This document shows positions 10,801-63,221 of a DNA stretch of 64,000 nucleotides, piece after piece. Made by a program: the position numbers and the translations under genes. Numbering within the stretch: position 1 is the stretch's first letter; each line of letters starts with the position of its first letter. A model generated the notes under the pieces. It saw only the letters and a list, made by a program, of their open reading frames with translations, searched no databases and was not told the origin of the DNA. This stretch comes from Enoplolaimus lenunculus (taxonomy: Eukaryota). Location of the stretch: positions 248,001 through 312,000 of the forward strand of contig JASANG010000611.1 of assembly GCA_030248215.1 (NCBI GenBank), in the 5' to 3' direction.

Positions 10801-13800
10801 TGTAGATAACAGGTGTGCAAGCTTTTAGGATTCCACAGATTTTTCGAGCATTCTATTTACTCTGCTAAAAATGGTGAGTCAAATTGACACTCTCCGAAAT
10901 AGGCTTTTCTGGACTACACAAACTGAGTTAAAATTTGATTATGACCGAGTGGAATTTGACTAAGTTTGTGCAGTCCGGAAAAGCTTATTTCGGAGAGTGC
11001 CAATTTGACTCACCTTTTTTGCAGTGTAGTGATGTTTCTTGTTTCTATAGCAATTTTGCGCCGGTATAAAAATAATCCATTACCCTATTTTGTAATATAC
11101 ACCCCCGTAGGTATTACAATATACGTATGGTTTTTTTATTTCCACTAGGTTACACCTTATACTTTCATTATCATAACGTTAAGTAACTAAATAATATTTC
11201 AGGTAATGATAGCAGCCTAGGTTTAGCGTATTATACGCACTTATTTGACGAATTTAGAAGTAAATCAGAAACGACGGGTCAATTGTTATGCTCGAAACTG
11301 TTATGGGGCAAATGCATGGGAGCCACAATTTATGTAAGAGCGATTAATCTCAGTGGTAAAATATATAAATTTCTATCGGAGTGAGCGCGATATTTCATGC
11401 TGATTAAATCACGTCAGCGCAGTGTGCGAAAAGCCAAACGCAATTTTAAAACTAAATAGCAAAATTTAGTTTTTGATTCCCATTGGATCCGCCAACGGTT
11501 GAACTAGCATTACATTGGTATATGATGTTGTTCAGCAGCTTACAAATCAATAAACAATTTTGCCAATATATTCTTCGCACCTTTATAGCAAATGCCCTTC
11601 AAAATTATTTCATTTCAGAGCTCAAACCAATGGAACGATTTCATTTGGCTTTTACAACGAATTTCCGGCACTGATTCAGTTGTCAATGGCGTACCTTCGA
11701 GTCAACTTTCATATCAAGCGTTTCTGGACGCGCAACAGTATTCGATACGTGGAGTTGATATTTATGAGTGGATATTTGGCGAAGGTTTTATTAGCCCAGG
11801 TGGTATTAGGCAAAACAGGGTAAGCAAGCGTGCTGTAAATTGAGCATCACGCAATCGCCGCTATTCACCATGCGGCATCTTACGCGAAGTGATGCTGTAC
11901 TTGTCATGTGTCGCCGTACGTCGCCATTCGAACCCTATAGTATGGTACGCGAGCAGTTCGCGTACCATAATGCATGGTGTCCAACGATAAGCGCCATTCT
12001 TAACCCTTTAACTCATATAGTATACTATGAGCAACTAAATACAAATGATATATGAGCAACACAGACACTGTGAGTAGTGTTTAATAATTGTAACATATAT
12101 GTGCAATGCAAAATCTCTACAAGACGTGAGAGCCCCCTCATGCTCGAGCGTCAAGCTCCTATAGCTGAGTGGTCATCGTAAACGCCTCACACCCGAGGGA
12201 CTGGGGACCTAATCTTACCTTGAAAGTGCATCTCATATGAAATTGAAAATATTCATGTGCGACAGGGTTAATCTTAGTATTTGTCTTGTCCATGTACAGA
12301 ATTGAACCCAAACTGTTTAGGCTTTGGTGCTATCGCGTTTGGTTGGTAGGATCATCAATTGTAAAAGTAGTTGTTCAGAAACCATGGAACTTTTTCGGTA
12401 GCGATGATGTCAAATGTTCTGAGTACCGCAACTGGGTGTAGCCAGGAGTTTTGTTGGAGCAAGTATAACTGCAAGTATTAAGATTACAATGCGAGCTTAG
12501 TAAGCAAAGATAATTTTTAAATTTTGAAAGTGATCGGTGCTAATTCTAGAACATATATGTGAGGCGTAATATGTGTAAGCTGCAGAATTCAGTTAAATGA
12601 CGTTTATTTTTTGTTTTGCCACAGAAATGCATCGAAATGATCGGATCAGTTGAACCTGGGCAAACAGTGCTTGATATTGGATCGGGCATAGGCGGAAATG
12701 CATTGATGATGGCTCAGGTTAGGCTTAAGCCATCATTTTTTGTATAGAGTGCGTAAAATATGTAAGCTATGGCCAATGTATAGAACAGATGGAGGAACAG
12801 TGGTATAAGTATATTCCTAAGCCTAAGTCTAAGTGTACGAATGTGCTTATACCTAAGCCTAAGCGTAAACCTTAGCTATAAAATTAGCCTAAAGCTTAAG
12901 CTTACTCTATTTTAGTCCGGTTGAATAACGTTCCGCCCCTGATTTTTACATGGACCCAAGTTATAAATGTTTAAACTCCACCATGAAAGAAACATTTAAG
13001 CTGTGTTGTGCGGTTGTGTGTTGCAGTAATCATGGTTACCAGTTGAATTACATGTCAGATGCAGATGAACAGGGTCTGGAGATGTAGAATATGGTATTAT
13101 TTCAAATTCGGAAACGAAGTGTTATGAATATTTTCAAGCGCCATAGTCTTAGGCTTAGGCTTAGGAATGTTTATACTACTGTTACGGTCGTTGCGGTTCG
13201 GTTCTATGCATTGGGCCAATTTCCTAACATAATTTCCGGCTTTGTCGCTAGTAAAGCACCGTGATAAATTCAATTTTTATAGTTTTTCAACGGTATAGAA
13301 ACGAACTCAATGTTAGCAAAATTTTGCATTACCTAATAAACCTCGAAGTGTACTTGGTTCTACTTTTAGTGATCCGAAAAAGAGATGTTACTGATATTTC
13401 TTTCGCCTCTCCAAAGGGTACCCCCTGTTATTCGGTTACAGACTGGTATTTGTTTTAACCCGCCCTCCACCGCCATTCTTTGCTCATATATATCCAGTAT
13501 TGTCATTACTATCCACTAAATTTAACGTTTCTTTGTCTTGTATTAAAATCTTGACCGATAACGCCAAGTTATACGCTGCAAAAAATGGTGAGTCAAATTG
13601 ACTCTCTAAGAAATAGGCTTTTCCTGACTGCACAAACTGAGTCGAATTGACTCTGGCGGAGTCGAATTTTGACTCAGTTTGTGTAGTCAGAAATAGCCTA
13701 GTTCGGAGAGTGTCAATTTGACTCACCATTTCTTGCAGTGTACTTAGGAATGTACTTTCAAAACTTAAGTATGCTTTAAAGTTTCTAACTCAACTTAGTG

Positions 13801-30067: not shown

Positions 30068-33000
30068 ATGATAACCGCTGCTTTTGGCCCAGTACGCGCT
30101 TTCGCGTCTTCCTCGCGATACGGTTGTCTTTGCTCGGTGGCGGCAATTGTACCTTCTGCAACAACACAACTGAAACGTAGTCTTCATTTGTCTTCTCCGT
30201 TTCGTTACGACGATTATGACAATAAATTTTTTTCACCTCCAGGACACAACACTATTGTTGGAGGAAGAAGAGTATGGGACGCGTTAACAGGTACGGTATT
30301 CACTGGTCATTTAGAAAGTCTGCACGGTACCAGGTCGGGTATTCCTAAAAAACTATGGTAGCTCCAGGGACGTAGCAAGGATTTCAATTGTGGAGGGTGT
30401 AAATCCCTTGCGTTTTTGCCCATCGAGTATAGAGTCCGGAAAAACTTGTACACTTAATTCATGCCGCACTGTAGTTTCGATATCATTTAATGCGACTTTT
30501 ATTACACATTTTGTACATTATCTTTATGTTAAACTTGTGCCAATGTTCAGAGCATAATGATAGTACAAAAACTTAGGGACATTTGTATGATATATCTGGT
30601 TCGATGTTCAGTTAGGTGTAATTTTATAGTAACCAAGCGGCCACTGGGGATTGCCACAATGATCTCTATGTTAACAAACTATTCGCCGCACATGGTATTC
30701 TTAGTGTTAATTGCAGGCGATTATTTTCGTGTCCGTAAACGTATCAAAGAAGCAGAGTACGACGTTTATCGCCGGAAAGGTTTGTTGTCACATCAGTGGC
30801 GTGACGTTTTTATGCATGATTTAATTCCATACGAAGTTCACTATTTGATCATTGGCGGTGGTGCGATCGGTAGCTCAATTGCATATTGGTTGCGACAGCG
30901 GTATCGCGATGAAGAAGTACGGGTTACTGTGATTGAACGCGACGATACTGTAAGTTTGTTTTGAATATATACTGTATTATGCATGACCCGTATTCTCAAC
31001 TGTGTGTAGTTTTAATTGCCAATTAGTCTTATATAGGTCATCAAACAATCTGCCTGCAATAGCTGAGGATAATTAGATTCCGCACAGTGTAGCAGCGTAA
31101 AATAAATGCGAAAATGTATCAAATTTCGAAGCGAACCATTCGACATCGCCATAACTTGTGCTATGTGCTAACGAATTTGAGGTTACGAGTCCCTTGGGAT
31201 TGTTCGCATATATATGTTTACACTTAACGGGTAAACTCTGTTAGGTGGATAGTCCCCCACTGTTGGACTGCCCAGATTGATTTCTCTCACTTTTTAGAGT
31301 GTGTTAGCATCATATAATCCTCGATATAATAATGTATGCCAGAAAAATGTATTTATCGGGCGGAAGCCCTAGAATATAACGCGAACGTCATATCTGGGAA
31401 GGTTTATTAGCCATAAATGTCGCTTAGCGATGCCAGAAGCGAATATTGTGTTCTGAATAAAAGTTGGCATACGGGTGTATAACGTATAAAATGGCCTCAG
31501 GTTCCCCTAGACTTAACCTAGAAGAAGTCTTCCACTAGAAATCGAAGATGTGGTCATTCAATAAATGAGAGAACGTGGAGTGCTGACGAAAACGTTCTCC
31601 GAGCAACATGCCGTCTACTTAAAGATTTTGAAACGTTGAAAAACTGTTAGCTCAATATCTAGCATCTTGTAGTTTCATACCTTATGCCAACAAATCCTAT
31701 TAGTAAATAGGAGCTTTGTGATGCTGTATTAAGTTGCATTCGGCTCTGAGTGCAGGACAGTTTTCACGGAAATGCTTAACGGTTTTTCTAATTCTTGTTA
31801 GAAAACGAAAACAAAGGGTGTACACTTATGAACAAGTTGGCTTTAAGTGTATTCAATTGCATTTATTTATTTAGCTATCATAGACTTTATTGAAGTCTAC
31901 TTTTTAGTTCATTGTTGCGTTCTAGTTCAATCAGTCGTCATCAGTTTTGGGGATCGGCGGCCTTCGTCAACAGTTTTCGACACCTGAATTGATTGAAATG
32001 TCACAGTTCGGCGCAGAATTTTTGAGACATGCCGGAGAACATTTGAGGATGCTTGGTATGTCACTAAAATGTGCTGGGTATGTCTTGCTGTTCTATTATA
32101 TTTAGTTTTTGGTGGTTGTTTTTTGTACTGAGCAAACAATCAAGTTTTACTTCAAAATTCTAGTTTTTGTATTTTTATCGCTAGCCTTAAAATTGCGTAC
32201 GGACATTAAACGAGTGAGCTGTATGTAACATACGATTGTTTTAATAGAATTTGCTGTTTTATGACGACGTTTTAATTTCTTCTGTAATTGTGTCAAACTA
32301 AAAGACTTATAGAAGATCGTGAATCGATGAAGCTAAATTTCATGTTCGAAAGGAATGTGCCTGCAGTATCTATAAAACTGATCTCAGCAAGTATGTGTTG
32401 TATTAGTTTGTATATAAGACATACAAAACTTTTAATTGTTGCAAAATCTTTTGTGTTTTAGACTGCGAACCGCCTGATGTTCCGTTTACTCCAATGGGCT
32501 ATTTATTTCTTGCTCAAAATGAATGCGACAAGGAACGGCTTGAAAAAGATCACAAAACGCAGTTGTATGTTTCAATCACACACAATAAATATTTTATTTG
32601 ATGTGTTGCAGTTTTTATACATTGCAAGTTTTAGTCTGTAATTTAAAATTAATCATGTGTAGTATTTAGTACCTATTACAAGTTGGTCGAGTTTTGATTG
32701 GTGCTACTCGTGAGCCGTGTTTAATGTTTGTAGCTGCCGCCCTTCCATTGTTTGAATAACTATTGCTAACCGGTAATAGGTGGTACACATGTTTGAGTGG
32801 TCCTGATCATTGCCCTGCCTCACACTGCTGTTACGTAAACAGTACAATATTTGACCAATAATCTTTAAATCACGGAACTATTTCATGATTTGTTATACTG
32901 TATAGCTATTAGCAGTATTGTTTTGATCGTTATTGATTTAGACATTATGGAGTCAAAGTCGCATTGTTGACTCGTGAGGAATTGTCAGCGAAATTTCCCT

Positions 33001-36000
33001 TTATGAAGTTCGATGATGTTTTACTTGGTTCTTTAGGTAAATTATTTTTATTTATCATGAATGTCTACTTAGTGTTCTGATAAATGGCTGTTTTGTTTTA
33101 AAAAGGCGCAATCAGTGCCACATTCTAAACTTTTACAGCAGAAGTTCAATTAGATTGTCGAGAGATGTCTCTGTGGTGCATAGCATGCTAAAGCGGATCG
33201 CTGTTTGTATTAACCTGAGTCATATGATTTTACTGTGTACGAGTGAGAACGGAAAACATTGCTGTATTAACTGAATTAGGCTGATTTGGTTGAAGTATAC
33301 TGTTATAAGTTTTTACATGGATTCTATTATTCTTGTAGGTCTGGAGAACGAAGGCGTTTTTGATAGTTGGAGCTTTCTTACAGCACTGCGAGAAAAAAAT
33401 TTAGCATTGGGCGTTCAATACATTAAAGCTGAGCTAACAGGTGATATTGTGTGTTTTATTTTGTTGCCTTGTCAATGCTTATCTTTAAAGCAATCAAATA
33501 AATTATCCTTGTTTTTGCAGAATTAGAAAGAAAATGTAAGTAGAGGTAAACGAAAATACGAGTACATTTTTGCTTCAGATTTCTGTTTTGAACCTGTTCA
33601 TGATCTGAGCGCTGAAGCAAGCTTGCCAAGACATGAGCACTGGAAATATGAGATGCTTCGTGGTGTTGTTGTAAGAATTGAATGCATTTTCATTTATTTC
33701 ATTGTTTTTATAGTTTTATGGATGCAGGGGTAACAACAGTCTTAGCTGGGGCATTTTGTTGTTTGACAAGCCTTAGAACCGAACCGTTGCTAAATCTTTG
33801 CTAAATGGTCCAATTTTTGCCTGGGGTTATAATTACTACTATTGAGCGTTATTTGTCGTTTAAGATTAAGCCACATGCTTCTTCGGCAGCACCGCGACCA
33901 ATTCGATGTATGATGTGCATTAATGCGGCTGGAGCTTGGGCTGGACAAATAGCAACAAAAGGACGTTGCGGATATGGCAACGATATTTTATCGTTGCCGG
34001 TTCCGATTGTGAAAAGGTTATCATGATGTGTCTGTGTGGTTTAATTGCTAATCAATCAGATCGTGTCGTTAATTTTGTTTTAGTAGGGAAAATCCAGTTG
34101 CTAGTGGTAGGTTAGTGGTTAATAAAGAATTTTTATGCGTAGTCACTGTACCGTGATGCTTACACACGGTTGGTGTTAAAATAAGTGCGTTCATTTGAAG
34201 TATATATAATTGTACAAACATTGTCTACCAATCGGGTTTGTAAGTCTTGTTTTTGCCTGCATCTTAATTTATTTTATCGTGCCAGCAAGGGCATGTCTAT
34301 GTTTGTTTTAGGAAACGGCACGTATTTGTATTTTACTGTCCGGAAGGCCCCGGTTTAGCTATGCCATTTCTCGTAGACCCCTCAGGTGTATGGTGCAGAC
34401 GCGATGGCATCGGACACATCTACCACTGTGGCTACGAACCAACGAAGGTAATAAGTAATGCAATGATAATATGGTGTCTTTAAGTGTTGTTCAGACTACA
34501 TAGTGTACGGGTGCAGTGTGACATTAAAATTTTATCAACAACTGCAGCGCAACCCTAATCTCATATTGCATCCTACGTTTAATTCTAAACTTAAGTCTAA
34601 ACTATTGGTTTCTCTGTGCGTTTCAAACCTTACACTTTATTTTGAAAAGTGAAGGACATTATAATCTTATTGAGTTACAGGAAGAAGACGAAAAAATCGA
34701 CCACAAAACGCTTTCAATTGAAGAAGATATATTTTACGAGAAAATACTGCCAGTTCTTATCAGAAGGGTGCCATCCTTTGCATCACTTAGGGTATGGAAT
34801 GTTTAATTATTTTGATTGTATTTTTGACAGGAATAGATGACTTTTAACAAGTAAAAAGTTGAATAATATTTAAAATGTCAGAATTCAATATTGTTGAGCA
34901 GGCATGTACGCGTGATTTAATTTCGGAGGATTCCGCTCCCATACAAATATAAATTTCAAGGGTTCCGTATTGCGTTTACGGCCTTTCAGTTTTACTAAAA
35001 ACCAGTGATTGACAGTTGCACTGCTGTTCAGATTTTCTCCAAATATGCCTTGATTCAATTTCAGTACTAACTCCGAGACAAGTTGCAAAGTGCCGGTACT
35101 AATTTCTGCAAAATGCAAAATTTTTGTGTCGGTGCACCTTTTCACTTTTGTTTGACTCCTCAACTTTTTAACGCAGTTTCTTAAGCGTTTGAAATTTTTC
35201 GCCAAACAAATTTTGTAGGTTGGCCAAGCCGGGGAACTCTACCTGCATCAGTTTTTAAATTTTAGTATTAGCGAAAGCTTTAAAATACTATGAATAGTAT
35301 GTAGTAAGTGCAGATTCTGATTGGTTATCATACTGTTAACAGAGTATTGGTTATGTTTATTCATTATATTAATTGTTTCAGTATAAAAACGCGTGGGCTG
35401 GTTATTACGATGTTAATTTGTTTGATAACCTTCCAGTCATTGGTGAACACCCGATATATACAAATTTTTATCAGGTTTGAAAATTTTTTAGTCAGATTTT
35501 CAAACATAGCTCCAATCTTGTACCTTCTTCTTCTGCTTCTCAAAACCGCGATCTACTGACCATAGGCCACGCCAGATTTGAGTCTAGCGCATGCGCGGAG
35601 AAAGCGGATAACATTGGCCGGCTCATCAAACAGCACCGTTTCAGACTTGACGGGTAGATATAGGTGTCGAACACTGTCGCCAATGGGACAGTCCCACAGT
35701 GCATGGTTTAGGTCATCCATCTCGTAGTTGCACACTGAGCATCTTGGGTTTGGTGCTTTCCGAATGTGATGTAGGTACCAATTGAGGATTGGCGACTTTT
35801 CACCACATCTGAGCTGTGCCAAAATTCTCCGTTCCCGTCTTGACAGGTTGGCTTCTTTATCTCTGTTGGGTGGGGGTCTGATGCCGGCTCTCATCAGTTC
35901 GGCTGCCAACTTGTTTCGGTGTATGCGTTTGATGGTAGTTTTAGCCGTCTTGAAGTCGATTGGGGCATCTGATTGTTCCATTCTGTTCCCTTCTCCAGCA

Positions 36001-38877
36001 AGTTTGTCGGCTTCTTCGTTGCCTTCTGTGCCAGCATGGCCAGGGATCCATTGGACAATGACTTTCTTGACCCTATTACACACTTCTGACATTGCAGTCC
36101 AGAGATTCTCGAAGCTCTTGGTTTTGATTGAGATGATTCCTCCATTGAGGTTCATGACTAGAGATTGCGAGTCGGTCAAGATCCATATGACATCCGTGGT
36201 TTGCAGTGGCAAGTTTCTCAGTTCGTGCAGTCCTTTTGTCATTGCAGTTTGCTCGGCTTTGTAGCTGGAAGTAAACCGGCCTGCCGGAAGGCAAAGCCTA
36301 ATCTCACGGTCCTCCATTTTGATGTAAATACCGGCGCCTCCATTTTCGAATGATTCAATTGCTGATCCATCCGTAAACATTGTAATGGTAGGCGGATCTA
36401 AGCTACTCAGCGTCGCTTCTGCAGCTTGCTTTCTGGTTTCAGGAGTGTCTGTTTTGCGTGCCTCAATCGTTAGCTGACAGTTTGTTTCAAGGTTACTCGG
36501 TCTTCTCCATGGGCACATGTTTGGCAGCACGAGTTCTTCTCTTGGCAGTGATTCTAGACCTGTATCGGTTGCGATTGCTTTGCCCGTTTCACGCCACGAT
36601 CGTACAGATTTCAGCCTTTCATTGATAGAGCTATCTGCTGCGGTACGCAAGGGATTCGATGGTGGCAGTCTTTTAGCTTTTTCGTATGCTGTGGTGGCTA
36701 AGATAGCCTTCCGGTCTCGAAGCGGGACAAGGCCAGCCTCATTGAGCGTCTTCTTCTCATTTGAACCTGCACACGGTCCAGCTATGATTCTTGCACCGGC
36801 TGTTTGTTCCCGTTGCAGTTGTTTCATCGATGTTTCAGTAGCCAGTGGCATCCATGCACCGCCTGCGTATTCGATTGCGCTTTGTATGTAGGCCAAGAAC
36901 ACCGCTTTTAGATCTTCTTTAGCGCTTCCCCAGGACTTTCCCGCGATTGCTTTCATGGCGGAGAGTTTGCCTCGGACTTTCTTCTTCATTAGGGCCACGT
37001 GTTTGGTAAACGACAGCGTTCTGTCGAAGGTGATCCCAAGGAATTTTGGGCTATCCGTAACACTGACTCTGGATCCATCCAAGTAGCACACGTTGGGTTT
37101 ATGGCTCGCTTCTTTGTTATTTTTTGTGAAATAACAAACTTCGGTCTTTCCTTTGCTGATTGTCATTTTCCATCTTTTAGCCCACTTTTCCAGTACGTGT
37201 ACCGCCTCTTGCATTCTCTTGGCCGCATGATTCTTGTTTTCATCTCTCGTGATAAGCGCGACATCATCAGCGAAAAGACTGACCTCCACTTTGGGGGGTA
37301 GTTCGTCGGCAATGTCGTTGATGAAACACAGGAACAATGAGGGCGATAACACCGTACCTTGAGGGACACCGCCATGGAATGGCCTGTAGCTCGAATCAGC
37401 GTATTCGTACTCAACCTTTGCTTTCCGCCCTCTGAGGAAGTTCTTTATGCATCGGTACATACATCGTGGCATCTTCATGTTCTCCAGCTTCTGTAGCAGA
37501 CCTGCGTGCCATGCGGTATCGAAAGCTGTGCTGAAATCTACAAGTAGCATCACTGACTTCTCTTTGTTCTGAAATCCATCGGCTATGTACTGCGTGATTC
37601 GTTGTACTTGTTGCTCCGTACTCCGTAGCGATCGGAATCCATTCTGGTTCGGGCTGAGCTTGTTCGATGATTCTAGCCAAAAGGACAGTCTGGTTTTCAG
37701 CATTCTTTCGAACACTTTACATACGCAGCTTGTCAGGCTTATCGGTCTGTACGAACCGAGCTCCGCTGGATCCTTTCCGGCTTTGAGTAACGGTTTGATT
37801 GTTGCAACTTTCCAATCGGTTGGCATGAAACCGCTAGCCAGGACTTTGTTGAACAGCAGAAGTAATGTGATCTTGCCATTTTCAGATATGTTCGCAAGCA
37901 TTAGGTTATGTATTCCATCAGTTCCAGGGGCGCTGTTCGGCTTTAATTTCGAAAGAGCATGCTCAAGTTCGTTTGCCCTGAAAGGCTCGCAGTATACACA
38001 TCCAGCGCACTTTCCGCGGATCTTTTGTAGCTTGCGTTGAGCTGGCCTATCTTCATTGGCGCACTTCACATTGCTTACTCTGGCGTACATTTTGCAGAAA
38101 GCGGTAGCCTTCGCTTTGCTGGCTGTGATTGTTTTCCCGGCCACCACTAACGCTTCACCAGACTTTCTTTCTTTTAAACGGCCGTCGATCGCCGCCAGCG
38201 TTCGGAATACTTTGCTGTTGTCTGTTTTTGCACCTAGCTTGTTCACCTCGCTTCTCCAGAATTCCCGTTTGGCCTTCATAGTTGCACGTCGTGCTAGTCT
38301 GCATGAATCTTTCCAATTTTTCATGTCCGATTCGCTCCTGTGGGCAAGCTTCCCGAGTTCTCTACGATTGTGGAAAGCGTTTCTGACTTCGTCGTCCCAC
38401 CACGGCTTTGGGTTCACGACTTTACAGTAATACAGAACGCTACGTAAAGTTACTTCCAAGAAGGAATTTCAGACATTTCGAAAAACGTGACGTTGTACTT
38501 TTAAGCATTAAGCTTATAGTAAATTAATACCACCTCAGCTTTATAACAATATCGTTCAACTCTACGTAAATATATTTTCTAGACGTCCCTTTCAGTTTTA
38601 TGTGAACAGTTTGATGTTTTAAAACTATACACCTCTAAAAATTCAAATTTTTCATTATATTAAATCCATTGTTTTTATGCAGCGCATGGATGTAGAATTG
38701 TTTGACTTTCAGGTTTCGGGTTTCGGTGGGACCGGTCTCCAACATTCACTCGCAGTTGGTCGAGCTATGATGGAAAAGCTTCTTGATGGCGCCTATATTG
38801 CAATCAATTTAAGAAAATTTGATCTGCTGCGATTTATGCACCATAAAAAGATTGAATCGGAACGTAGACAAGTGTAG
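30068..38877 (+). CDS. FOXRED1: FAD-dependent oxidoreductase domain-containing protein 1 (mitochondrial complex I assembly factor), ~12 exons
   Basis: Transit-peptide-like exon 1; IIGGGAIGSSIAYWL...VTVIERD (30717-30949); GGLRQQFS (31926-32055); ENEGVFDSW; INAAGAWA; PFLVDPSGVW; AWAGYYD (35382-35474); GFGGTGLQHSLAVGRA (38713-38877). Confidence 0.95.
35524..38430 (-). mobile_element. 5'-truncated non-LTR retrotransposon (I superfamily, ingi-like) in the last FOXRED1 intron; RT + RNase H + zinc knuckle
   Basis: Uninterrupted ORF 38459-35553: KPWW, SAPGTDGI, YRPISLTS, GVPQGTVLSP, FADD, RNase H FTDGS/SSYKAE/TDSQS/WIPGHAGTEGNEEAD, CSVC-x8-H-x4-C; short 3' UTR ending in (GAA)n; no endonuclease domain. 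Confidence 0.93.
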
Positions 38878-39709: not shown

Positions 39710-39778
39710 AACTAATCGATATGACAACACATTGCAGATTACTAAACTAAAGAAACCAAACATCATTTTAGCTTTTAA

Positions 39779-41284
39779 CCCTCAATGGCCCGACAGTCTA
39801 CATATGTAGACATAACCAGTTCGACAATTGATTGTTCGGCAGGTGCTATAGTTAAGAATCTATTGTTTAATTTCCATCGATAATTATTCTGTTATAGTAG
39901 TATAAAAAACTTATAGCATTGTGGGAACAAAAGTTTGCTGTACAGTGAGTCATATACCTATATAACCCGACCGTCTACATATGTAGACAGATGTTGATTT
40001 GATCATAGTTTGAGTTTTGACAAGAATTGGAACGTTTTGTTCTTACACACGGTTTTGTATGGTGAGGTAAAGTCAGGGAAATGTCAGGTTTGCATAAATT
40101 ATCTTTGACTGAGGTCGTACGACGTGTATTAGAACCAAGTGATTCAGAGACAGAAGATCAAACCGGACGACAATAGTTCAAATACGACTCAGAATCAGTT
40201 GAGTTAGGTCAATGCAGTAGTGAAGAGGCTGCTATTTATGAGCAAGATAGTGATGGTGAATTACAAAAACAATCGGACGCATCTAGTAGTGAGTTGAGCG
40301 ATATGGACGAGACTTCTAGTGGAAGTAATGTGTTTTTGTCAGCGACGGGTGTTGAGTGGCATTCTACAACACCGCCTGTCCGTGTGTTAGCTAGAAATAT
40401 AATTCGCTTTCGCGAAGGCACTGCAGTAAACCCTACAACAGAGTCACAAGCATTTTATCTTTATATAAACGAGCCCATTTTACATACAATTCAGCGACTC
40501 ACTAGTAGGCGACTGCGGGCGCGCAATTTTTCAACGCTACCAATGTGCGAGCTGAAAGCTTGGCTTGGGGTGGTAATCAGAGCTGGTGCAGATCGCGATA
40601 ACATGTCTCCAGTGGCTTCACTATTCACCAAAAACGACAGCAGGCCCTTTTACCGCTGCGCGCTGTCAAAAACAGAATGAAACAGTTGCTGGAAAATGTA
40701 ACATTCGACAACAAACTGACTCGCCGGGAGCGTCAAAAAAGTGACAAAATGGCTGCTATACGAGATGTTTGGGACCTATTTCAGTCCAACTTACGTCTTC
40801 ACGGATATCAAAAATCACGCAATGTTTTCATGAAAAAAGTAGCCGAACAACTAGCGCAAGACAATATGACCAAACGTTACAGTAGTGAAAAAATTTACGC
40901 AAAATCAAAGGATTCATTTATGGCTTACGGGCTGCCTCAAAAGCGAAACGAACCTTCTACATCTGGTAAACCGACCAAATGTCAGGTCACAAGTTGTCGC
41001 AAATCTACGAGATTGAGCTGTTCGTCATGTGGAAAACGAGTGTGCAAGGACCACATGAATCGCACCATAACGTGCAACGACTGTGCTTAACTGGACAACG
41101 CGCCCGCAGTGGGAGGCTGGACGGGGAGCGGGTGGAACTCCGCCAGAACACTAGTTCTGACTGTCTCAAGCCAGTTAAAGGAGGAGAGCACCCTGAGATA
41201 AGCCAAAACTAACGCTAGTTGTGTTGTCTACATATGTAGACCGTTGGGCTGATTAAGGTGAAAATTTTGCCGGGCCGTTGAGGG
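39779..41284 (+). mobile_element. Internally deleted piggyBac transposon
   Basis: TTAA TSDs (39775-39778, 41285-41288); TIR CCCTCAA(T/C)GGCCCG(A/G)CA; palindrome GTCTACATATGTAGAC at 39796, 39973, 41226; transposase remnants: acidic N-terminus, ELKAWLG, FDNKLTRRERQKSDKMAAIRDVWDLF, C-terminal Cys-rich domain; DDD core absent. Confidence 0.93.
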
Positions 41285-53753: not shown

Positions 53754-56740
53754 CTAACGAAAGCCGGTTTAACTCTATCGATCGAAACCCTGTTTCGCAG
53801 CCCTTGTTGATCAATTGACACTGTTTTTTCGTCCCAATCGACAATACGATGCGGGCCATTGTAACGGGGTTCGAGACTGTTTCTAGGTGCTGCATCACGC
53901 AACCACACATACTCACATGATCGCAAGTCCTTGGGAACGTAGCAGGGAGCGCGATGGATTCTTACTGGCGCTGAAAAATTCCTTACACCCGCAAAAAATG
54001 TTTCTAAAAAATAATTCGAAAACCTAGGACATTCAGGTGTATTAGTATTGAAAAAATAGCCCGGCAAATTCAGTGATTTCCCATACAATGTTTGTGCTGG
54101 ACAGACTCCGTCGTCGTTAATGGCATTACGAATTCCTAAAAGCAAAAGTGGTAAATGTAATGTCCAATTGGCGCAATCACATTTCGATCGCAACGCAGCT
54201 TTTAGCGTACGATGGAAACGTTCAACGGCCCCATTGCAAGCTGGATGGTAAGCAGTAGTTCGTTTGCGTTTGATTCCCAATTTTCTCATCAACTCGTCCC
54301 AGACAGCAGACTCAAATTGAGGTCCGCGGTCTGAAATAAGAATTCTGGGTACGCCAAAACGGCTGACCCAATGATTAAGAAAAGCACTCACTATGGTAGT
54401 AGTTGACATATCTGCAATCGGAATAGCTTCTGGCCATTTCGTGAAACGATCTACAACTGTTAACAAATACGCAAAACCCCCAGAACGAGGTAACGGTCCT
54501 ACCAAATCTATATGAATTGTGTCTAACCTTGTTGACGTTGGTATATCACCGATTGGGGCGCGGGTATGGCCCACCTTACTGACCTGACATCGGTGACAAA
54601 ACCTACACCAAAGCTTAACTTCTTTGTTCATTCCCGGCCAAATCTTTGCGCAATTGTGCGTAAAGTACAGTTTGGACCGGTGTGAGCAGCATCATGTATA
54701 GCATGAAAATTTTCCTACGCATACAAAAAGGTATGTACGGTCTGATAACGGGAGTGGATGCATCACAAACAACAGTCTTGCCATTCACCTGAAACTTTTT
54801 TAAAGGCAAAGTAGTAGTGTTGAAAAATTGTTGCGAATCATTGTCCTCTAATTGCGCAATAGCCATTTCCTCGTTGCAATCTGAGGTAACAGCTGAACAG
54901 GACGAACGCGACAATGCGTCAGCAACGATGTTGTCGCAACCCGAAACATGCTCAATTTTACAATTATGCTCAGAGGTATAGGACAACCAACGAGATTGCT
55001 GAGGTGTAGGATTCTTCATACTCAATGCATTCAACAGAGGCTTATGATGCGTCCGAATAGTAGATTCGGTTCCCAACAACCACTTGAAATGTTTAAGCGA
55101 GGCATAAATAGCCAATAACTCCCTGTCAAAAGTAGATTTATTTGATTCAGAGTCCAACAGCTTACGTGAATAAAAAGATAGAGGTTGGCGCTCCCCATTA
55201 ACCAGCTGATTGAGAACAGCCCCTATTGCAATATTGGAAGCATCGGCGGTTAACTCAATTGCTGCATCCTCCAGTGGAAAATACAAAGTTCGACAGCTCT
55301 GCAATGCGTTTTTAAGTTCGATGAAAGCTTTTTTCGCGGAAACGTTCCACACCAGAGGTTGTTTGGAATTTTTCTTGACATTGCGCGTCATATCCGTGAG
55401 AGGGGCGGCTATTTCTGAAAATTGAGGAATGAATCTATGGTAAAATGCGCACATACCAATGAACCGTCTCAAACCTTTAACGGTAACTGGCATTTCAAAA
55501 CTGTTAATGGCATCGATCTTCGCCGTCAACGGACGAAACCCCCCGCATGTAATTTCAAACCCGATAAATTTTGTTTTAGACACTAAAAACTCACATTTCT
55601 CCTTTTTTAAACGCAAACCATTAGCAGATAAATGTTCAAATAACTGATGCAGATGTTTGATATGTTGCGGTATATCTTCACTAGCAATAAGTACATCATC
55701 TAAATACGCAATTGCAAAGGTGCAACCACGCAAAACGGTGTCCATTAAACGCTGAAATGTTTGAGCTGCATTCCGCAAGCCAAACGGCATGCGCCTGTAA
55801 ATGAAAAGTCCGAAGGGGGTAGTATAATTGCGGTTTTCAACTGGTCCTCCACCGCCACCGGTATCTGATGATAGGCGGACACTAGATCCACTTTGGAAAA
55901 TACCTTGCAATTCCCGAGCCGATTTGTCAAATCCCCTATGTTAGGCATCGGGTACCGATCAGGGATAGTCACTTTGTTCAACTTGCGATAATCGCCGCAA
56001 GGGCGCCATGGCGTCGCGTTATCTGTTTTGGGAGCCATGTGCAAAGCGGATGACCACGGCGATTCCCCTCGAAAAACCACGCCCTGTTTTTCGAGATTTT
56101 CAAAGGACTTTTTGGCAATCTCAAGTTTTGGACCAAAAAGCCTGCGGGGTTTACTGAAAACAGGCTGTCCATTTGTCACAATTCTGTGAACGACAGAATG
56201 TTGGATAACATCATTAGACGATGGTTTATCAAAAATATTTGAATACTCTTTCAAAATGCTACGGAGTTCAACACTCCCTGATGGTGCAATCGAGGAAACG
56301 TTGGTCGGTCTCACATTACGGCTAATAACTGAAAACTGGGCAAAATTGGCAACTTCTTTACCATAATTGAACCTATGACCTCGTACTAAACGCAAATTCC
56401 GACAGTCTACCACTAAATTATGATTGCTCAAAAAATCAAATCCTAAAATTGGCTGCGAAACATCGGCTATAACAAAATCCCATGAAAACTTCTGACCGAG
56501 CTGCGGAATGCGGAAATTTAACATTTTGGTCCCAAAACTAGGAACTGGAAAACCATTTGCTGCATAAAAGGTATCCGCCTGCGCCTCTGAACTGGTTTTG
56601 AACCCTCCAACGAACGATTTCGGCAAAAAACTTTTAACGCTGCCCGTGTCTGCTAAAAAAATACCGATCTCGGGAACTGCGACATTTATTGTTCTGACTC
56701 CGGTCCCTGTCGCCGCGGGGCCGGAGACTGTGCTTTTCCC
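53663..56740 (-). pseudogene. pol: Pol: aspartic protease, RT, RNase H, integrase; three internal frame breaks (~55825, ~54706, ~54641)
   Basis: FLADTGS, ILGFDFL, WRPCGDYRKLN, MPFGLRNA, YLDD, TADAS, DRELLA, HDAAH...CHRC, HIDLVGP, SDRGPQF, NGAVERFHRTLK, PRYNGPHRI. Confidence 0.95.
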
Positions 56741-57723
56741 GAATCTCTTACAACCCATTCACATGGTTTGACACATCTATGCGCTCGTGGGCCGAACCTC
56801 GCATGGTAAAAACAAAGCTGTCGACCAGCGCCATACCGCATTCCAGATCGTGAACTACGCGCAGAATTAGATCTCGACCGACCTGCAAAATGCCGTCCAT
56901 CTCTTGGACGCCTTTTATTCAACCCGTCCACGCGTTTACTGAGCTGTGCTATACAATTTGACATTTCCTTCATCTGAAGTCACAAGGTGTCATCAGCCTT
57001 TTCCTGACATGTTTCCGTAACCGATGATACACATGCATCAACACTAGCGCCGGGAGTCAACTGCTCTAAAATGCGATCAGCAAGACTAGCTAATTTCTCA
57101 ATTTTAACATCATCAACAACGACCAACGAAATTCTAACTTTCTCAGGAAGCGCAGCCATAAATCTCAGTTTCACCAAATCTGCATGACCAGGCGCTTTTC
57201 CCTGCAGCTGCCGCAGCAACACTGAAGGCTTTCGATCCCCTAAAACTTGCTGTTCCAACAGCTTCCGTAACTGCATCTCTTCACTTTGCCCAAAAAATTT
57301 AGTTACACAGTCTTTTATAGCTGCAGAGCTGTCCGTGGCATTTGTACCACTGTCTATCATGACATTGGTGGGTAGCGCATTAAGCAGTGCGTTCCTCTTT
57401 GAGGTTTCCGACAATCCCTCTATTAATGGCTCAATCTACGTGAACCAAACCCTTACATCACGTTCATAAAACTCGGGCAATTTTGGTAAACGACTGTTAC
57501 CGTCAGCGGGACCACTAGCTGCGGACAATGGTTGCTGCCCCGCCTCTGCCCACAATAACGCAACACTAACTACACCTGGTGGTATTTGGGCCAAAGCGTC
57601 CGCAATCAGACGCTTGGTTCCCGGCATTACAAAATCCGAATCATGCTCATTTATCAACTGGAGCGCTCTAGCCAACACCTCTTTATTGTATTTATCCAGG
57701 TTGGCCGCGTCTAACTTTGGGGG
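56686..57723 (-). pseudogene. gag: Gag, starting at the Pro after the second 2A motif; two in-frame stops (TAG 57438-57436, TGA 56982-56980)
   Basis: One frame: KLPEFYERDVRVWFT*IE, LGDRKPSVLLRQLQ, FMAALPEKVR, LASLADRI, knuckle CFYHARFGPRAHRCVKPC. Confidence 0.9.
56698..56740 (-). promoter_or_regulatory. Putative programmed -1 ribosomal frameshift signal (gag-pol)
   Basis: G_GGA_AAA in the gag frame (56740-56734); 7 nt later the hairpin CTCCGG-C-CCC-(9 nt)-GGG-A-CCGGAG (56726-56698); pol lies in the -1 frame. Confidence 0.75.
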
Positions 57724-57780
57724 CCCAGGATTGGGTTCGATTCCTGCTATAATCAGTAAAATGCGCAGTTGAGTAGCATG
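57721..57780 (-). other. 2A-like StopGo motif 2 (variant): HATQLRILLIIAGIEPNPG|P
   Basis: Hydrophobic helix + GIExNPGP, directly before Gag. Confidence 0.75.
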
Positions 57781-58623
57781 GCGAGCGCAAATCCCGCTAC
57801 TAGTATTTTCTATAGTACCATCAGCATACATTTTAACGTATTGCGGTGCCTCAGCCCTAACATTAGTAAACAAAATATTTACCGTAAGAAATATGAAAAG
57901 TATAAAATACACCTGCAATCCCACGGTCAAAGCTGTGTACAAACAATTTGCACGCATATTGTTTGTATTAGCTAAACAATTTGTCGAACAAAAATTCTCA
58001 TTTTTGCGCGAAACCTGAGTTTTTACAAATTGGGCATGAACAATATCATTCCTCGTATTGGGATTACTAAAAAATGTCTCAATACTGGACCGATTGTAAC
58101 AATGTTTTGATACTTTCTGAATTTTGTTCGGTGGCTTTCTCAAACGTGACAAACCAATGCCCGGAGACTTAATTATTGAACTTGAAACATGATTACTTAC
58201 GTTGGACGAGTTACCACGGTGACCAAAGTGATCAACCAAAAGCTTGTTTGCTATTGAACATATGATACGAAAACGCCGGGATCCTAAATGCACACCACCA
58301 TACCACCGGGTAACAACCACCATGACATTGGTAGCGCCAATAAGTTGTATTGTTTTCAATAAACGGCAACCAGCACCAAATTCACCATCATCATTAAATC
58401 CGGAATGCAACCCCGCTGCGCTGTTAATACAATAAGCATATATATTGTGCGTTGCCTTTGCAACTTTTTTGTTACCTGCCAAAAAATTTTCCAAAATTAC
58501 CTGAACATCGTCAGTTGGTAACAAATATGCAATATGTGCTTGAAAAATACTTTTTTTAAAAGCGAACGATTCGCCAGACATAAAACTGCTCACCCTACTG
58601 TTTGCTCCCCCATTTGTCAATGG
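57724..58623 (-). CDS. 300-aa cassette between the two 2A motifs: IMPACT/YigZ (UPF0029) domain (~58580-58225), linker, transmembrane helix (~57945-57860)
   Basis: KKSIFQAHIA, NKKVAKATHNIYAY, DDGEFGAGCRLL, NVMVVVTRWYGGVHLGSRRF are signature motifs of the IMPACT C-terminal domain; hydrophobic LTVGLQVYFILFIFLTVNILF. Confidence 0.9.
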
Positions 58624-58680
58624 ACCAGGATTTGATTCCACGTCTCCGGCCATTAACAATAGTAACTTTAAAGCGGTAGC
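58621..58680 (-). other. 2A StopGo motif 1 (canonical): ATALKLLLLMAGDVESNPG|P
   Basis: Exact D(V/I)ExNPGP consensus with a Leu-rich helix, very close to FMDV 2A (LLKLAGDVESNPGP). Confidence 0.92.
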
Positions 58681-59119
58681 TTGACTGAATCCCATCCTAC
58701 CAGAATTGTACATTGCAAATTTAACCCGTTTTCCTTTTAAAAATTCCCGCATTGTTCGCGAAGCATAAGTTTCAGCTAACCTACTAGAAACAAATAAGAG
58801 CTGTGCGCGATACAAAGCTGGTGTAATTGTAATACGCAACTGCTTAGATACAGTACGAAAACCTACAACGTGAAATAACAAATATAGCAACATAAGGGGC
58901 ATAAAAACATTCACTTTATCACGTTTCTTCTTTGCGCGTGAAATTGTGGCCAAACGACGCTTAGATCGATGTTGCGGCGACTCTGTTTTTTGGCGACAAA
59001 ACTTTATTTGTTTCCAAAGAAAAGTTACCGTCGCGTCGAAAACCATTGCAATAAGGACGAGCGACGCCGATTTCGTACACGCGCGAAACCCTTCGGAAAT
59101 GTACGCAAATCTCAAACTG

Positions 59120-59137
59120 ATCACGTCGGGGTCACCA
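59120..59137 (-). other. Primer binding site complementary to the tRNA-Trp 3' end
   Basis: TGGTGACCCCGACGTGAT, 2 nt after the 5' LTR; complement of ...AUCACGUCGGGGUCACCA of eukaryotic tRNA-Trp. Confidence 0.9.
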
Positions 59138-59139
59138 AG

Positions 59140-59516
59140 TATAGGTGCGTGAATTGTGATCCAACTAGCGCAACATAACACTAGAGTGAGCATTATCTTA
59201 AACATTGTATTATTGCATTTATTGTGTACAACAAGTATTTTATTGGTACAAAAAATACACCTGAAAAATGACAAAAACACACAAAATGAAACAACAACAA
59301 AGCTAGCCCATCTGTAACAAAACCAGAAAAGAAGCCAAACCAAAACACTAGCCCTTGACACCAGACTTTCTCCAACTGAGATGATTGCTAAGTTTTACTC
59401 TTGACAACTGTGTCGCCCCCGCAATATGCAAATTATCATGAAAGCTAACCCGGCAGTTGTTAAGCGCAGCATGCAAATTGCTCGCAAAACTACAGCGAGA
59501 GAACACGGCCGCCACA
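59140..59516 (-). repeat. 5' LTR (377 bp)
   Basis: Direct repeat of 52857-53232, followed by the PBS. Confidence 0.95.
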
Positions 59517-60153
59517 GTTGTTTCGCTTCCAGAAGTTCCAAAATTTGTTTACTCCCGGCTCCGGTATTTTGAACGTCCATACACTGCAAAAAATGGTGAG
59601 TCAAATTGACTCTCTCCTGCTCTATGGCAGGGTTCCAACGGAATTCCGATTCCGGTTAAAATTCCGAACAATTTGGGTTCCGATTCCGATTGGCCTTTAT
59701 TCCGATGCCGGAATTCCGATTTAAATTAGTTTTTAAGCTGATTGAACTTATATTTTGCCTATTTTTTCCTTTGTTTGCAAATCTGTTTGTTGTTGTTTTC
59801 GAAGCATTCTAATTATTTCGCTGATTGTCAGAAAGAGTTCTACTTCATGGCGGCAAGCAGTGATGTTAGCCCTACTAGTTCTCAAATCATATGAACACGA
59901 TAGTGTTCATATATATGGTTCGCGCTTCTCAAGTGCGAATTTTCAGTTTAGTTTGCATGTTTTTATATTTTGTACATTGGTATCCTGGTACCTGTGCCTA
60001 AGGATTTGCCAAACAAGCGCGGCCTTCAGTAGTTACGGTCAAACAACACCTTACAAAAAGTGCACGAAATTTTCCATTTTGGTTGCCTTTTACCCGTTGC
60101 ATACACCTTAGACCCTGGCCGGCCCCCCCCCCCCTGGTCCCAAACAAACCCCC

Positions 60154-60430
60154 TTCACCCCAACGATTGGTTTTACCCCCAACGGTTGCTTTCACCCCAC
60201 GTGTTGGTTTCACACTAACGATTGGTTTTACCCCAACGGTTGGTTTCACCACAACGGTTACTTTCACCCCAACGGTTGGTTTCACCCGCACGGTTGGTTT
60301 ACCTCAACGGATGGTTTCACCCCACGGTGATTTTACCCCAACGGTTGGTTTCACTACAACGGTTAGTTTCACCCCAACGGTTGGTTTCACCCCAACGGTC
60401 GGTTTCACCCCAATGCTTGGTTTCACCCCA
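60154..60430. repeat. 18-bp minisatellite, ~15 units, consensus TTTCACCCCAACGGTTGG
   Basis: Direct head-to-tail repeats without spacers; preceded by a C run at 60123-60134. Confidence 0.92.
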
Positions 60431-60541
60431 TTTCTGTCATGCAAACGATTTATTGAAACTCCGTATTTAGTTTAATCAGTCTTTTCATTTTTCATAGTTC
60501 AGATTAATGGATTAATCAGCAGCTTGGTAAAGCAGTTGAAA

Positions 60542-61125: not shown

Positions 61126-63221
61126 CATAGCTCGATATTAGGTTCAACAGTATGCTTACTGTAGAAGGTTTAGATTCTAGATTACATTTTTTACTTAGGC
61201 TTTAGGCTTAGGAACAAATTTTTGCAACGCTTAGGCTTAGGAATACGTAATTTGCTGTTATGCCCCTTAAAGTAAACATTGCCCGTTGTTCCTTTGCTTT
61301 GAGACTTAACAGGCTGCCCTTAGAATTGTCAGGCCTCCATTAATATAATTTTACAGGTTAGTAGATCGCTAATACAGTCAGCTAAGCAATTTTTACTGAA
61401 ACTGTGAACAATACAGACACACATACTGTAACAAAAAGTCAAGCCATATACTTTAGTTTTTGATATAATTTTAATTACTAAAATTTAAATTCCAATGCCG
61501 GTTTCGAAACAAATTTGATTCCGAGTCCGCTTCCGACAAAATTTACTTCCGATCGGAACCCTGCTCTACGGGACTACAGAAAATGAGTCAAGTTCGGCTA
61601 CGCCAGAGCCAAACATGCAACTCAGTGAGTTGAATTTAACCTTGGCGGACTCCAATTTAACTCAGTGAGTTGGATTTGATCTGGCAGACTCGAATTTAGC
61701 TCAGTTTGTATAGTCCCGTACAGCATGTTTCGGAGAGTCGATTTTGACTTACTGTTTTTTGCTATGCAGTTGTACCCTGCATGGGGGAATGATAAGGCCC
61801 CAAATACCAGCGTGTACCGGATATCCATTTCCGGTAAAAACCGGAGTCTATTTTCGTTATAGAAATAACGGGAATTGTGTTATCTTTAAGTTCGAAATTA
61901 GTCATAAAAATGACATATATCTCGCAATTTTTCGTCACAAATATGCTACAATACAATTGTTTGAAATACAATAAAAACCAAAATCTTAAAAATTTCGGTG
62001 CATCCGTCAGTCTTTTATACTTTTGAAAAACAGGTGAATATATGCACGCCTCGTGTTGGCAGAAAAAACATTTATGAAACTTTCAATATCCGTTTTCCGT
62101 ATCCGTTTTGATCACTATCCTTTTCCGTTATTTTTACTATCCGTTCACACCCTGCCAAAAACTAATAGCCAAACTAATTATATTCTTAATAATCAAATTT
62201 TGAAGCAGAAATTTTTTGTATACTTTCACACTATAGTTAAATACAGCAAACTATTTTTACCGTACAAGCACACGAACTACAAAATAGGCCACGTATGACA
62301 AAGACTAAAACTTCAAAAAATAGTACAGGTAAAGCCAAAATTAGTTCGACATTGGTAAAATATTTTGACATTTTAACGTATATTAGCATTACAATATTGG
62401 TCATAAATTACTCGGAGTAAGAGTAAAGTTTTGGAGATGTACTTTAGGCACTAAACAGCAAAAACATTACAGACAAGATTTATTGGCAAGTAAAAGACAG
62501 AAATTTAGAAAATTGTTGTCCTGAATTATCTGAGGTTTTCATGAACCCAGTCATATAAGTAATATACACGACAAAAGTATAATTTTGCTAGTATATACAT
62601 ATCACAAACCTAACACAATAATTTAGCAAACTAGTCACAGTACAGAATCACCGGATTATAATCAATACTGAGTAAAAAAATAAAAAAATTAAAATAAAAA
62701 CCTTGTTCGCATTTTCTCTCTCTCAACCATCCTGTCAGTAGCAATAGCATCCAATATGTTTCAGCTCAAAAAATTAAGATAAATTTTTTGGCGAAGCCGA
62801 ACAGGAAATATGAAGAAAATTTTCGTCAAAAGTAGCAAATTTTACTGTAGATAAGTAAATGCAAAACCAAAAATGAAAGGGAAAAAATTCTATAGCTAGT
62901 CAATAAAATGTCCCATTTTAGTACCGAAATTCTATATCAAATGCTACCTCCAAAAACCAGGCATAACCTTTAATTTTATATCCATTTGTGTCGCAAGTAT
63001 GTTTGTTGTAATTTCTATCCTGAATATTTCGTACGCAATTTTTAACTAACAGCAATGATAGACTCTGTATAAAATTAAAACACTTCACGTTTACTTAATA
63101 TAATGTTACTCTCGTTTTGACCGTTGCTCATTAAAAACCACTCAAATCATCAAAAATAAAATCAAAATGCTTTAAACTCGACAAATCACATAGAAAGAGC
63201 AATATAAAAGCAAATTATTGA

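Follow-up and report, generated by a model that had tools for sequence, protein, structure and literature searches.

What does a long terminal repeat (LTR) retrotransposon gain by carrying the "ancient" domain of the GCN2 inhibitor IMPACT ahead of its Gag protein? The question is raised by a 64,000-nt stretch of Enoplolaimus lenunculus DNA (GCA_030248215.1, contig JASANG010000611.1, positions 248,001 to 312,000; hereafter the window), in which an LTR-bounded retrotransposon of 6.66 kb runs on the minus strand from 59516 down to 52857 and encodes a UPF0029 (IMPACT/YigZ) domain. A first-pass annotation, made from the letters alone, had placed motifs of this domain in a stop-free frame within the LTR-bounded unit. 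Four such motifs were found in a single open minus-strand frame, KKSIFQAHIA (58557-58528), NKKVAKATHNIYAY (58473-58432), DDGEFGAGCRLL (58392-58357) and NVMVVVTRWYGGVHLGSRRF (58329-58270), and the 4-bp duplication that flanks the unit was perfect. The identity given to the domain at first pass was borne out by Pfam, with PF01205 matched at an E-value of 6.1e-25 and 87.7 bits (cut-off 27) over model positions 1-106 of 107. The annotation had also been right about the missing RWD domain, as no match to PF05773 or any other RWD family was detected at E-values up to 0.1 across the 652-codon frame. Thus, the cargo is not a GCN1 competitor of the IMPACT type.

The fold of the cargo was compared with those of solved family members. 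By sequence, the nearest solved chains were yeast Yih1 (6bqi, E 1e-13) and T. thermophilus TTHA1053 (2cve). A 300-residue segment (58641-57742), shifted six residues upstream relative to the predicted product, was modeled by AlphaFold with 120 homologues, and the predicted confidence (pLDDT) of the model was 94-98 over residues 21-140. The model aligned to 2cve with a Z score of 16.4 (root-mean-square deviation, rmsd, 2.3; 115 residues aligned), to 1vi7 with 14.9 (rmsd 3.4; 122 aligned) and to 6bqi with 10.7 (rmsd 3.4; 115 aligned), while Foldseek matched the family structures at E 1e-8 to 1e-6. Beyond these three structures the next score was 7.1, and the weak neighbours at Z 5.2-5.4, exosome core subunits and TetM, were within the range of common arrangements.

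The domain was found to be part of the first open reading frame (ORF1) of the element, in which a leader, a 2A-like site, the IMPACT domain, a basic spacer, a hydrophobic helix and a second 2A-like site are followed by Gag, all in one frame (Table 1). The product between the two 2A-like sites would be 300 aa in length (58623-57724). In a published account, the StopGo core is expanded to (D/G/C/N)(V/I)ExNPGP, with viral cores pairing D with S and G with P (PMC12846837). Both cores of the window fit this octamer, site 1 with D and S and site 2 with G and P, which upholds the two 2A-like signals of the first-pass annotation, and no 2A core arose in 100 shuffled windows. The two hydrophobic-plus-2A modules displayed no detectable likeness outside the core (251 of 1000 shuffles scored as high). 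Between the domain and site 2, the 495 nt from 58236 to 57742 contained no stop in frame compared to 6-17 stops in each of the five other frames, and none of 20000 shuffles was stop-free. The pLDDT of the basic spacer was mostly below 50, and the helix that follows it in the model may be a membrane anchor. The start codon of ORF1 is uncertain because contigs of three DNA sequencing runs (X1, X2 and X3, drawn from two samples of one study, among which may be the source of the window itself) all differ from the window by an indel at the leader's upstream edge; in the window copy the frame stays open upstream of the leader. As 39 AUGs precede the first Met inside Gag, Gag would most simply be made by the same ribosomes that translate the cargo. 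We have little doubt that this layout is read as one translated frame, and we consider it probable that at least one of the two 2A-like sites is active.

Whether the domain is kept or simply carried was examined by its conservation and by related contigs. At the near-invariant columns, in which at least 95% of 281 other domains agree, the cargo retains the common residue in 19 of 19 cases; it does so at 14/17 columns that are 80-95% conserved, 11/21 at 60-80%, 13/32 at 40-60% and 3/38 below 40%. The end branch that leads to the cargo is 0.93 in length compared to 0.33-0.42 for two nematode IMPACTs and, by arithmetic, 0.5 extra changes per site spread uniformly over sites would spare all 19 columns with a probability of about 1e-4. 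Contigs that span both the cargo and gag were obtained once in each run (2870, 2669 and 3497 nt) and, thus, the arrangement is not an assembly chimera. An additional X1 contig of 5086 nt was about 20% diverged and matched gag with 26 differences in 129 nt (80% match). Within the cargo, the TRWYGG stretch was the sole part that aligned, on the same strand and with 11 differences in 58 nt (81%); its distance from gag was 1074 nt compared to 1072 nt in the window. The same 58-nt stretch was matched by shorter X2 and X3 contigs. Judged by these matches, the 5086-nt contig is a diverged sister with the same order. Taken together, the 19 retained columns and the diverged sister point to an old, selected cargo, and the capture and retention within the element that had been proposed at first pass are supported. 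That selection has kept the cargo we regard as likely.

Relatives of the domain were sought among proteins, metagenome loci and viral contigs. The protein searches gave 296 proteins (partly the best 150 of 2939), which were mostly RWD-bearing IMPACTs, and none of these except the query had a 2A core or a CHCC knuckle. Twelve relatives had a coiled-coil/RRM-like N-terminus ahead of the domain, which was read by eye as the ORF1 protein (ORF1p) of long interspersed nuclear elements (LINEs), Pfam naming coiled coils only. Among the best 80 of 563 confirmed metagenome loci, 66 had an RWD match, five an ORF1 match and nine neither. Two of the five ORF1 loci (L039 and L052) had an endonuclease and a reverse transcriptase (RT) behind and were identified as LINE ORF1s; at such loci the domain forms the end of an RNA-binding-type ORF1. 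Both L052:218-5252 and L039:3-5618 look like full LINEs with an ORF1-UPF0029 protein, with their domains in one clade; by eye, ORF2 of L052 was CR1/Crack-like with a 2A site and that of L039 was L1/Tx1-like without one. No Gypsy RT or integrase was detected in the same best 80 of 563 loci, and when the gag region was used as the query, none of the 7995 candidates scored (lengths 275-875) proved to be a relative at E 0.001. Viral contigs were not matched by the protein query, and the alignment query matched one prophage-edge bacterial homologue. A stand-alone eukaryote-like ancient-domain protein of about 122 aa was observed at the edge of a bacterial prophage contig (L081:1-369). Proteins with two to four tandem UPF0029 domains were also observed (P0140, P0296 and P0286, sea anemones among them); P0296 in addition has HEPN_DZIP3 domains, a hint that proteins of an immune type employ the ancient domain. 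A literature search that took in few subscription journals, and not Repbase, gave no description of a UPF0029/IMPACT domain in any retrotransposon. The parts are known, and their arrangement, a host domain before Gag between two 2A sites, was not found in print.

The first-pass annotation had derived the cargo from a host mRNA, and here the evidence was divided. In its residues the domain is more host-like than LINE-like: at 20 diagnostic columns the cargo was in the host state at seven (one of them a terminal gap column), in the ORF1 state at two and in neither at 11, and the profile log-odds was -32 bits for the cargo compared to -110 for held-out host rows and +123 for held-out ORF1 rows. 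The trees (a FastTree of 282 domains, a quick mixture-model tree of 53 and two more thorough LG+G4 trees with 32 and 35 rows picked by hand, all without a bacterial outgroup) gave the cargo no supported position and did not reject kinship with the LINE-borne copies. The 12 ORF1-type domains formed a clade without the cargo (support 100/100), and in the best tree the cargo joined two nematode IMPACTs (58/80, not starred); by the approximately unbiased (AU) test, a clade of the cargo with the ORF1-type domains was not rejected (p 0.48, and 0.40 in the other tree). The cassette may instead have come from a LINE junction at which an ORF1 ending in the domain meets an ORF2 starting with a hydrophobic stretch and 2A, rather than directly from host mRNA. 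L052 has such an arrangement, with an ORF2 that starts hydrophobic and a 2A core 574 nt behind TRWYGG compared to 567 nt in the window. The aromatic form DDGE[FYW]GA[GS] is likewise common to the window and all 12 of 12 ORF1-type domains (several of them near-duplicates) and occurs in 6 of 230 RWD-type domains, and 2A-like sites are typical of LINE ORF2 starts (PMC3708506). By contrast, the spacer and modules of the window have no sequence likeness to L052 beyond the 2A core, and 2A was present in only one of the two LINE loci with ORF2 in view. Together with the 100/100 clade, the diagnostic columns and the log-odds, this leaves descent from a LINE junction rather unlikely, and a separate capture from a host IMPACT gene is favoured.

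We propose that the domain, which shares the Gag frame and lies between the two 2A-like sites, likely came from the IMPACT gene of the host and is likely kept by selection. A ribosome making Gag would first make the accessory, with the proline of the second 2A site as the start of Gag, and ribosomal StopGo would release the 300-aa accessory alongside Gag. Skipping at site 2 would separate Gag from the hydrophobic helix, a possible membrane tether of the accessory. With read-through, the domain and Gag would form a single protein resembling the LINE ORF1 fusions; were site 2 weak, the domain would remain attached to Gag, comparable to its attachment to ORF1p in LINEs. Through its conserved pocket, which is shared with bacterial YigZ, the accessory would act on RNA or ribosomes in the vicinity of the element's message, by a route other than GCN1 competition. 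Three features point to an accessory acting on RNA or ribosomes: the domain adjoins the RNA-packaging protein in two kinds of element, its pocket is intact and a basic spacer follows it. The least secure step is the benefit, which may lie in supporting translation that is rich in pauses (two StopGo sites plus one frameshift) or in supporting RNA-protein assembly. An action directed at RNA or ribosomes seems to us an even bet, and the whole chain, that of a StopGo-released accessory acting in this way, we put at slightly less than one half (roughly 45%).

The known route of IMPACT offers no support for the stress-response modulation that had been suggested at first pass. IMPACT inhibits GCN2 via its RWD domain, which alone suffices (PMC7140605), and since this route runs through RWD (PMC7140605, PMC4503747), the RWD-less cargo cannot act by it. 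In Yih1, the ancient domain is required for actin binding and is insufficient for it (PMC6550387).

Several observations weigh against the proposed chain. The binding of Yih1 to ribosomes, actin and Gcn1 maps to an overlapping region that includes the linker and extends beyond the ancient domain alone (PMC4503747), and deletion of YIH1 had a minimal effect on frameshifting at collided ribosomes (10.1101/2021.08.26.457827). Highly active 2A sites were found in only 43 of 580 retroelement contigs, with mid-range activity in 56% (10.64898/2026.09.24.754024), and most retrotransposon 2A sites tested lowered the protein level, leucine-rich ones often doing so rather than skipping (10.64898/2026.06.17.732966). 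Neither a second host species nor a second LTR element with the Gypsy layout was found in the protein, locus and gag-region searches. As the homologues were picked by similarity to the query and the host IMPACT is unseen, the conservation pattern may be partly inherited. The 2-nt difference in the spacing of the sister is not a multiple of three and, thus, either the sister is broken or its cargo is out of the gag frame; in the X3 contig, the domain itself is frameshifted. Among close copies the differences were near neutral, with three nonsynonymous and one synonymous in the domain (263 and 76 sites) and nine and three in gag (597 and 177 sites), as counted at 29 of 40 places examined among 64, two stop places and nine from diverged contigs being left out. 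A ratio (dN/dS) near 1 among copies had been offered at first pass as a sign of incidental transduction. This sign is misleading here: gag is as neutral as the domain, which indicates decay of recent copies and makes dN/dS within copies uninformative on the cargo.

Other roles of the domain would accommodate part of this evidence. To our knowledge, bacterial YigZ has neither an RWD domain nor an RWD partner. A free ancient domain could bind the RWD of GCN2 or of host IMPACT in trans and so retune GCN1-GCN2 signalling. This would agree with Yih1, in which the ancient domain folds back on RWD and blocks Gcn1 binding, RWD being the sole partner named in the available part of that account (PMC13094546), with the inhibition of GCN2 by IMPACT in C. 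elegans (PMC6550387) and with the seven of 20 diagnostic columns at which the cargo is in the host state. However, the invariant residues, which cluster on one face, form a pocket common to YigZ (PMC4503747), and the 11 of 20 columns at which the cargo is off the host state include ones where the LINE-borne copies left it. The cargo domain and the RWD of Pristionchus IMPACT gave a complex-prediction score of 0.01 in a run made without alignments, which speaks neither for nor against binding. We consider such trapping in trans unlikely.

Similarly improbable, in our estimate, is that the invariant Ser, His, Glu and two Arg are a catalytic site for element RNA, the tRNA primer or a signalling nucleotide. 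Invariance of S, F, A, H, E, R, W, G and R across 121 sequences would suit an enzyme, as would the polar and basic residues on one face for a phosphate-bearing substrate. However, no activity is known for any family member in the literature consulted, and its function is described as "still unknown" (PMC7140605); catalysis also overlaps with the proposed RNA- or ribosome-directed action and differs from it only in catalysis versus binding. Least probable is that a useless piece of host mRNA survives since the frame must stay open for Gag, with the 2A sites cutting its peptide away, for although the near-neutral close copies, the frameshifted contig, the sister spacing and the single organism would be expected of a passenger, an open frame alone would not keep all the near-invariant columns on a long branch, the core motif is the one alignable cargo stretch in the 20%-diverged sister, gag is equally neutral and LINEs hold the same domain.

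A wider form of the proposal is that on at least two occasions (for LINE ORF1p and for the Gypsy Gag polyprotein) retrotransposons took the RWD-less ancient domain into their first ORF for an RNA or stalled-ribosome activity of its own that shields translation from host stress or quality control, the Gypsy form being a StopGo-released, membrane-tethered counter-defence protein. We regard this as speculative and somewhat doubtful; if true, it would reveal the so far unknown role of a domain that is conserved across the whole of life.

The element that carries the cassette is a Ty3/Gypsy LTR retrotransposon, with LTRs, primer-binding site, polypurine tract, target duplication and the order protease, RT, RNase H and integrase all present (Table 1). 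The two LTRs differ by two substitutions and one indel. An initial choice of LTR ends, TG...CA with a 5-bp duplication containing one mismatch, was replaced by TG...TA with the perfect 4-bp duplication. We take the primer-binding site to be of the tRNA-Trp type; no tRNA gene was detected in the 64-kb window. Gag gave a weak match to DUF7041 (E 0.009, below cut-off), and Ty3 RT was the nearest solved protein to the RT (E 6e-54). The frameshift signal read at first pass stands in part: a -1 gag/pol overlap with an in-phase heptamer is present, and the stability of the hairpin downstream of the heptamer was no better than that of shuffles (z -0.68). Chromoviruses have a chromodomain at the site behind integrase. 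At this site the window element has a PWWP domain, a second captured host domain that may steer integration toward methylated chromatin; PWWP behind integrase was unnamed in the titles and abstract openings of the matching literature.

Table 1. Coordinates of the retrotransposon and its ORF1 cassette in the window.
Feature	Position	Strand	Remarks
Target-site duplication, 5' side of element	59517..59520	.	GTTG, identical to 52853-52856
5' LTR	59140..59516	-	377 nt, TG...TA ends
Primer-binding site, 18 nt	59120..59137	-	2 nt behind 5' LTR
Leader peptide of ORF1	58648..58902	-	hydrophobic stretch at its beginning
2A-like site 1	58621..58647	-	LLLLMAG-DVESNPGP, canonical core; putative
UPF0029 / IMPACT-YigZ ancient domain	58240..58557	-	PF01205; folded unit about 58581-58225
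Basic spacer, predicted disordered, in frame	57949..58235	-	13 K/R vs 3 D/E in 90 residues
Hydrophobic helix	57868..57948	-	Kyte-Doolittle peak 2.27; helix in model
2A-like site 2	57721..57744	-	LLIIA-GIEPNPGP, G-variant core; putative
Gag with CHCC knuckle	56689..57723	-	knuckle CX2HX9CX3C at 56814-56761
Slippery heptamer, in phase	56734..56740	-	within 70-nt gag/pol -1 overlap
Pol (protease DTG, RT, RNase H, integrase)	53666..56758	-	three frame pieces here; Pfam RVT_1, RT_RNaseH, rve
PWWP domain behind integrase	53439..53612	-	PF00855, E 1.2e-7, above cut-off
Polypurine tract	53233..53243	-	GGTGGGGGTTA, adjoins 3' LTR
3' LTR	52857..53232	-	376 nt
Target-site duplication, 3' side of element	52853..52856	.	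perfect 4 bp

The window copy is dead: its gag has two stops (57438-57436 and 56982-56980), and its pol frame is interrupted. In contigs of the three runs the sequence differs at the positions of both gag stops and, thus, these stops are private to the window copy. Contigs of all three runs skip the pol joints 55948-56551 and 56570-56791 and likely represent a deleted non-autonomous derivative or a diverged relative. Other diverged contigs (X1 records 3 and 4 and X2 record 10) each align to a single part of the cassette, be it gag (57247-57381), the stretch of the second 2A site (57725-57787) or 35 nt of the domain motif (58295-58329), which suggests more related families or a host IMPACT exon from the same organism.

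Elsewhere in the window, a 971-codon open non-LTR RT with an RNase H domain, which we take to be Ingi/I-like, was observed at 35553-38468 (minus strand), and remnants of a piggyBac-like transposase were recognized by eye at 40177-41090 (plus strand) with inverted arms at 39773-39812 and 41225-41264. Host exons on the plus strand at 30533-30964 and 45965-47244 encode an FAD-dependent oxidoreductase and a member of the inositol monophosphatase family, presumably FOXRED1-like and IMPAD1-like. Repeats included an 18-bp tandem array (60151-60464), a high-copy palindromic family resembling miniature inverted-repeat transposable elements (10853-11020, 13572-13747, 59580-59617 and 61695-61758) and three TTAGGC-type repeats compared to none expected, the last of which make a nematode the likely host.

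Conservation of the ancient domain extends from bacteria to mammals, and published accounts still describe its function as unknown (PMC4503747, PMC7140605, PMC6550387); work in yeast has given no clean separation of this domain from RWD. Selfish elements that keep the domain alone, with its pocket intact and beside an RNA-packaging protein, imply that it is likely useful by itself and offer natural stand-alone versions to assay. The two-2A cassette that places a host domain before Gag adds to the architectures of LTR elements.

Compared to IMPACT and Yih1, the cargo has the same fold, all of the near-invariant residues and 44-53% identity to animal and fungal IMPACT domains; it differs in having neither the RWD domain nor the acidic linker, such that the Gcn1-competing part is missing, and in its location in a retrotransposon ORF1 between 2A-like sites with a basic spacer and a hydrophobic helix behind. 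The element itself, by its CHCC knuckle and 4-bp duplication (the tRNA-Trp type of its primer site being an assumption), is of the CsRn1 type. Marks of the CsRn1 clade are a CX2HX9CX3C Gag knuckle, a 4-bp duplication (PwRn1) and a tRNA-Trp primer site (PMC2582038). CsRn1, PwRn1 and AgCR share with the window element this knuckle, the 4-bp duplication and LTRs of about 380 nt, and the order protease, RT, RNase H and integrase and the -1 gag/pol overlap are also common to the clade and the window element (PMC2582038). By contrast, the window element has about 1.2 kb of 2A-delimited cargo before gag and a PWWP domain behind integrase; no chromodomain was found in the elements of that study, and neither cargo nor PWWP is mentioned in the available portion of that account (PMC2582038). 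With other 2A retrotransposons the element shares a leucine-rich run and (D/G)(V/I)ExNPGP near the ORF start (PMC3708506; 10.64898/2026.06.17.732966; 10.64898/2026.09.24.754024). The 2A sites published for retroelements are mostly of non-LTR elements, with one Ty3-like case at the C-terminal end of RT, and the portions of these accounts consulted describe no pair of 2A sites on either side of a host domain ahead of Gag. The closest parallel is LINE ORF1p (P0084, P0098 and P0116; L039 and L052), which like the window element carries an RWD-less domain of the DDGE-aromatic-GAG form on its first, RNA-packaging ORF and, in L052, has 2A at a nearly equal distance downstream of the domain. In LINE ORF1p the domain is fused to a coiled-coil/RRM-type protein and ends the ORF, whereas in the window it lies ahead of Gag, with 2A sites marking it off.
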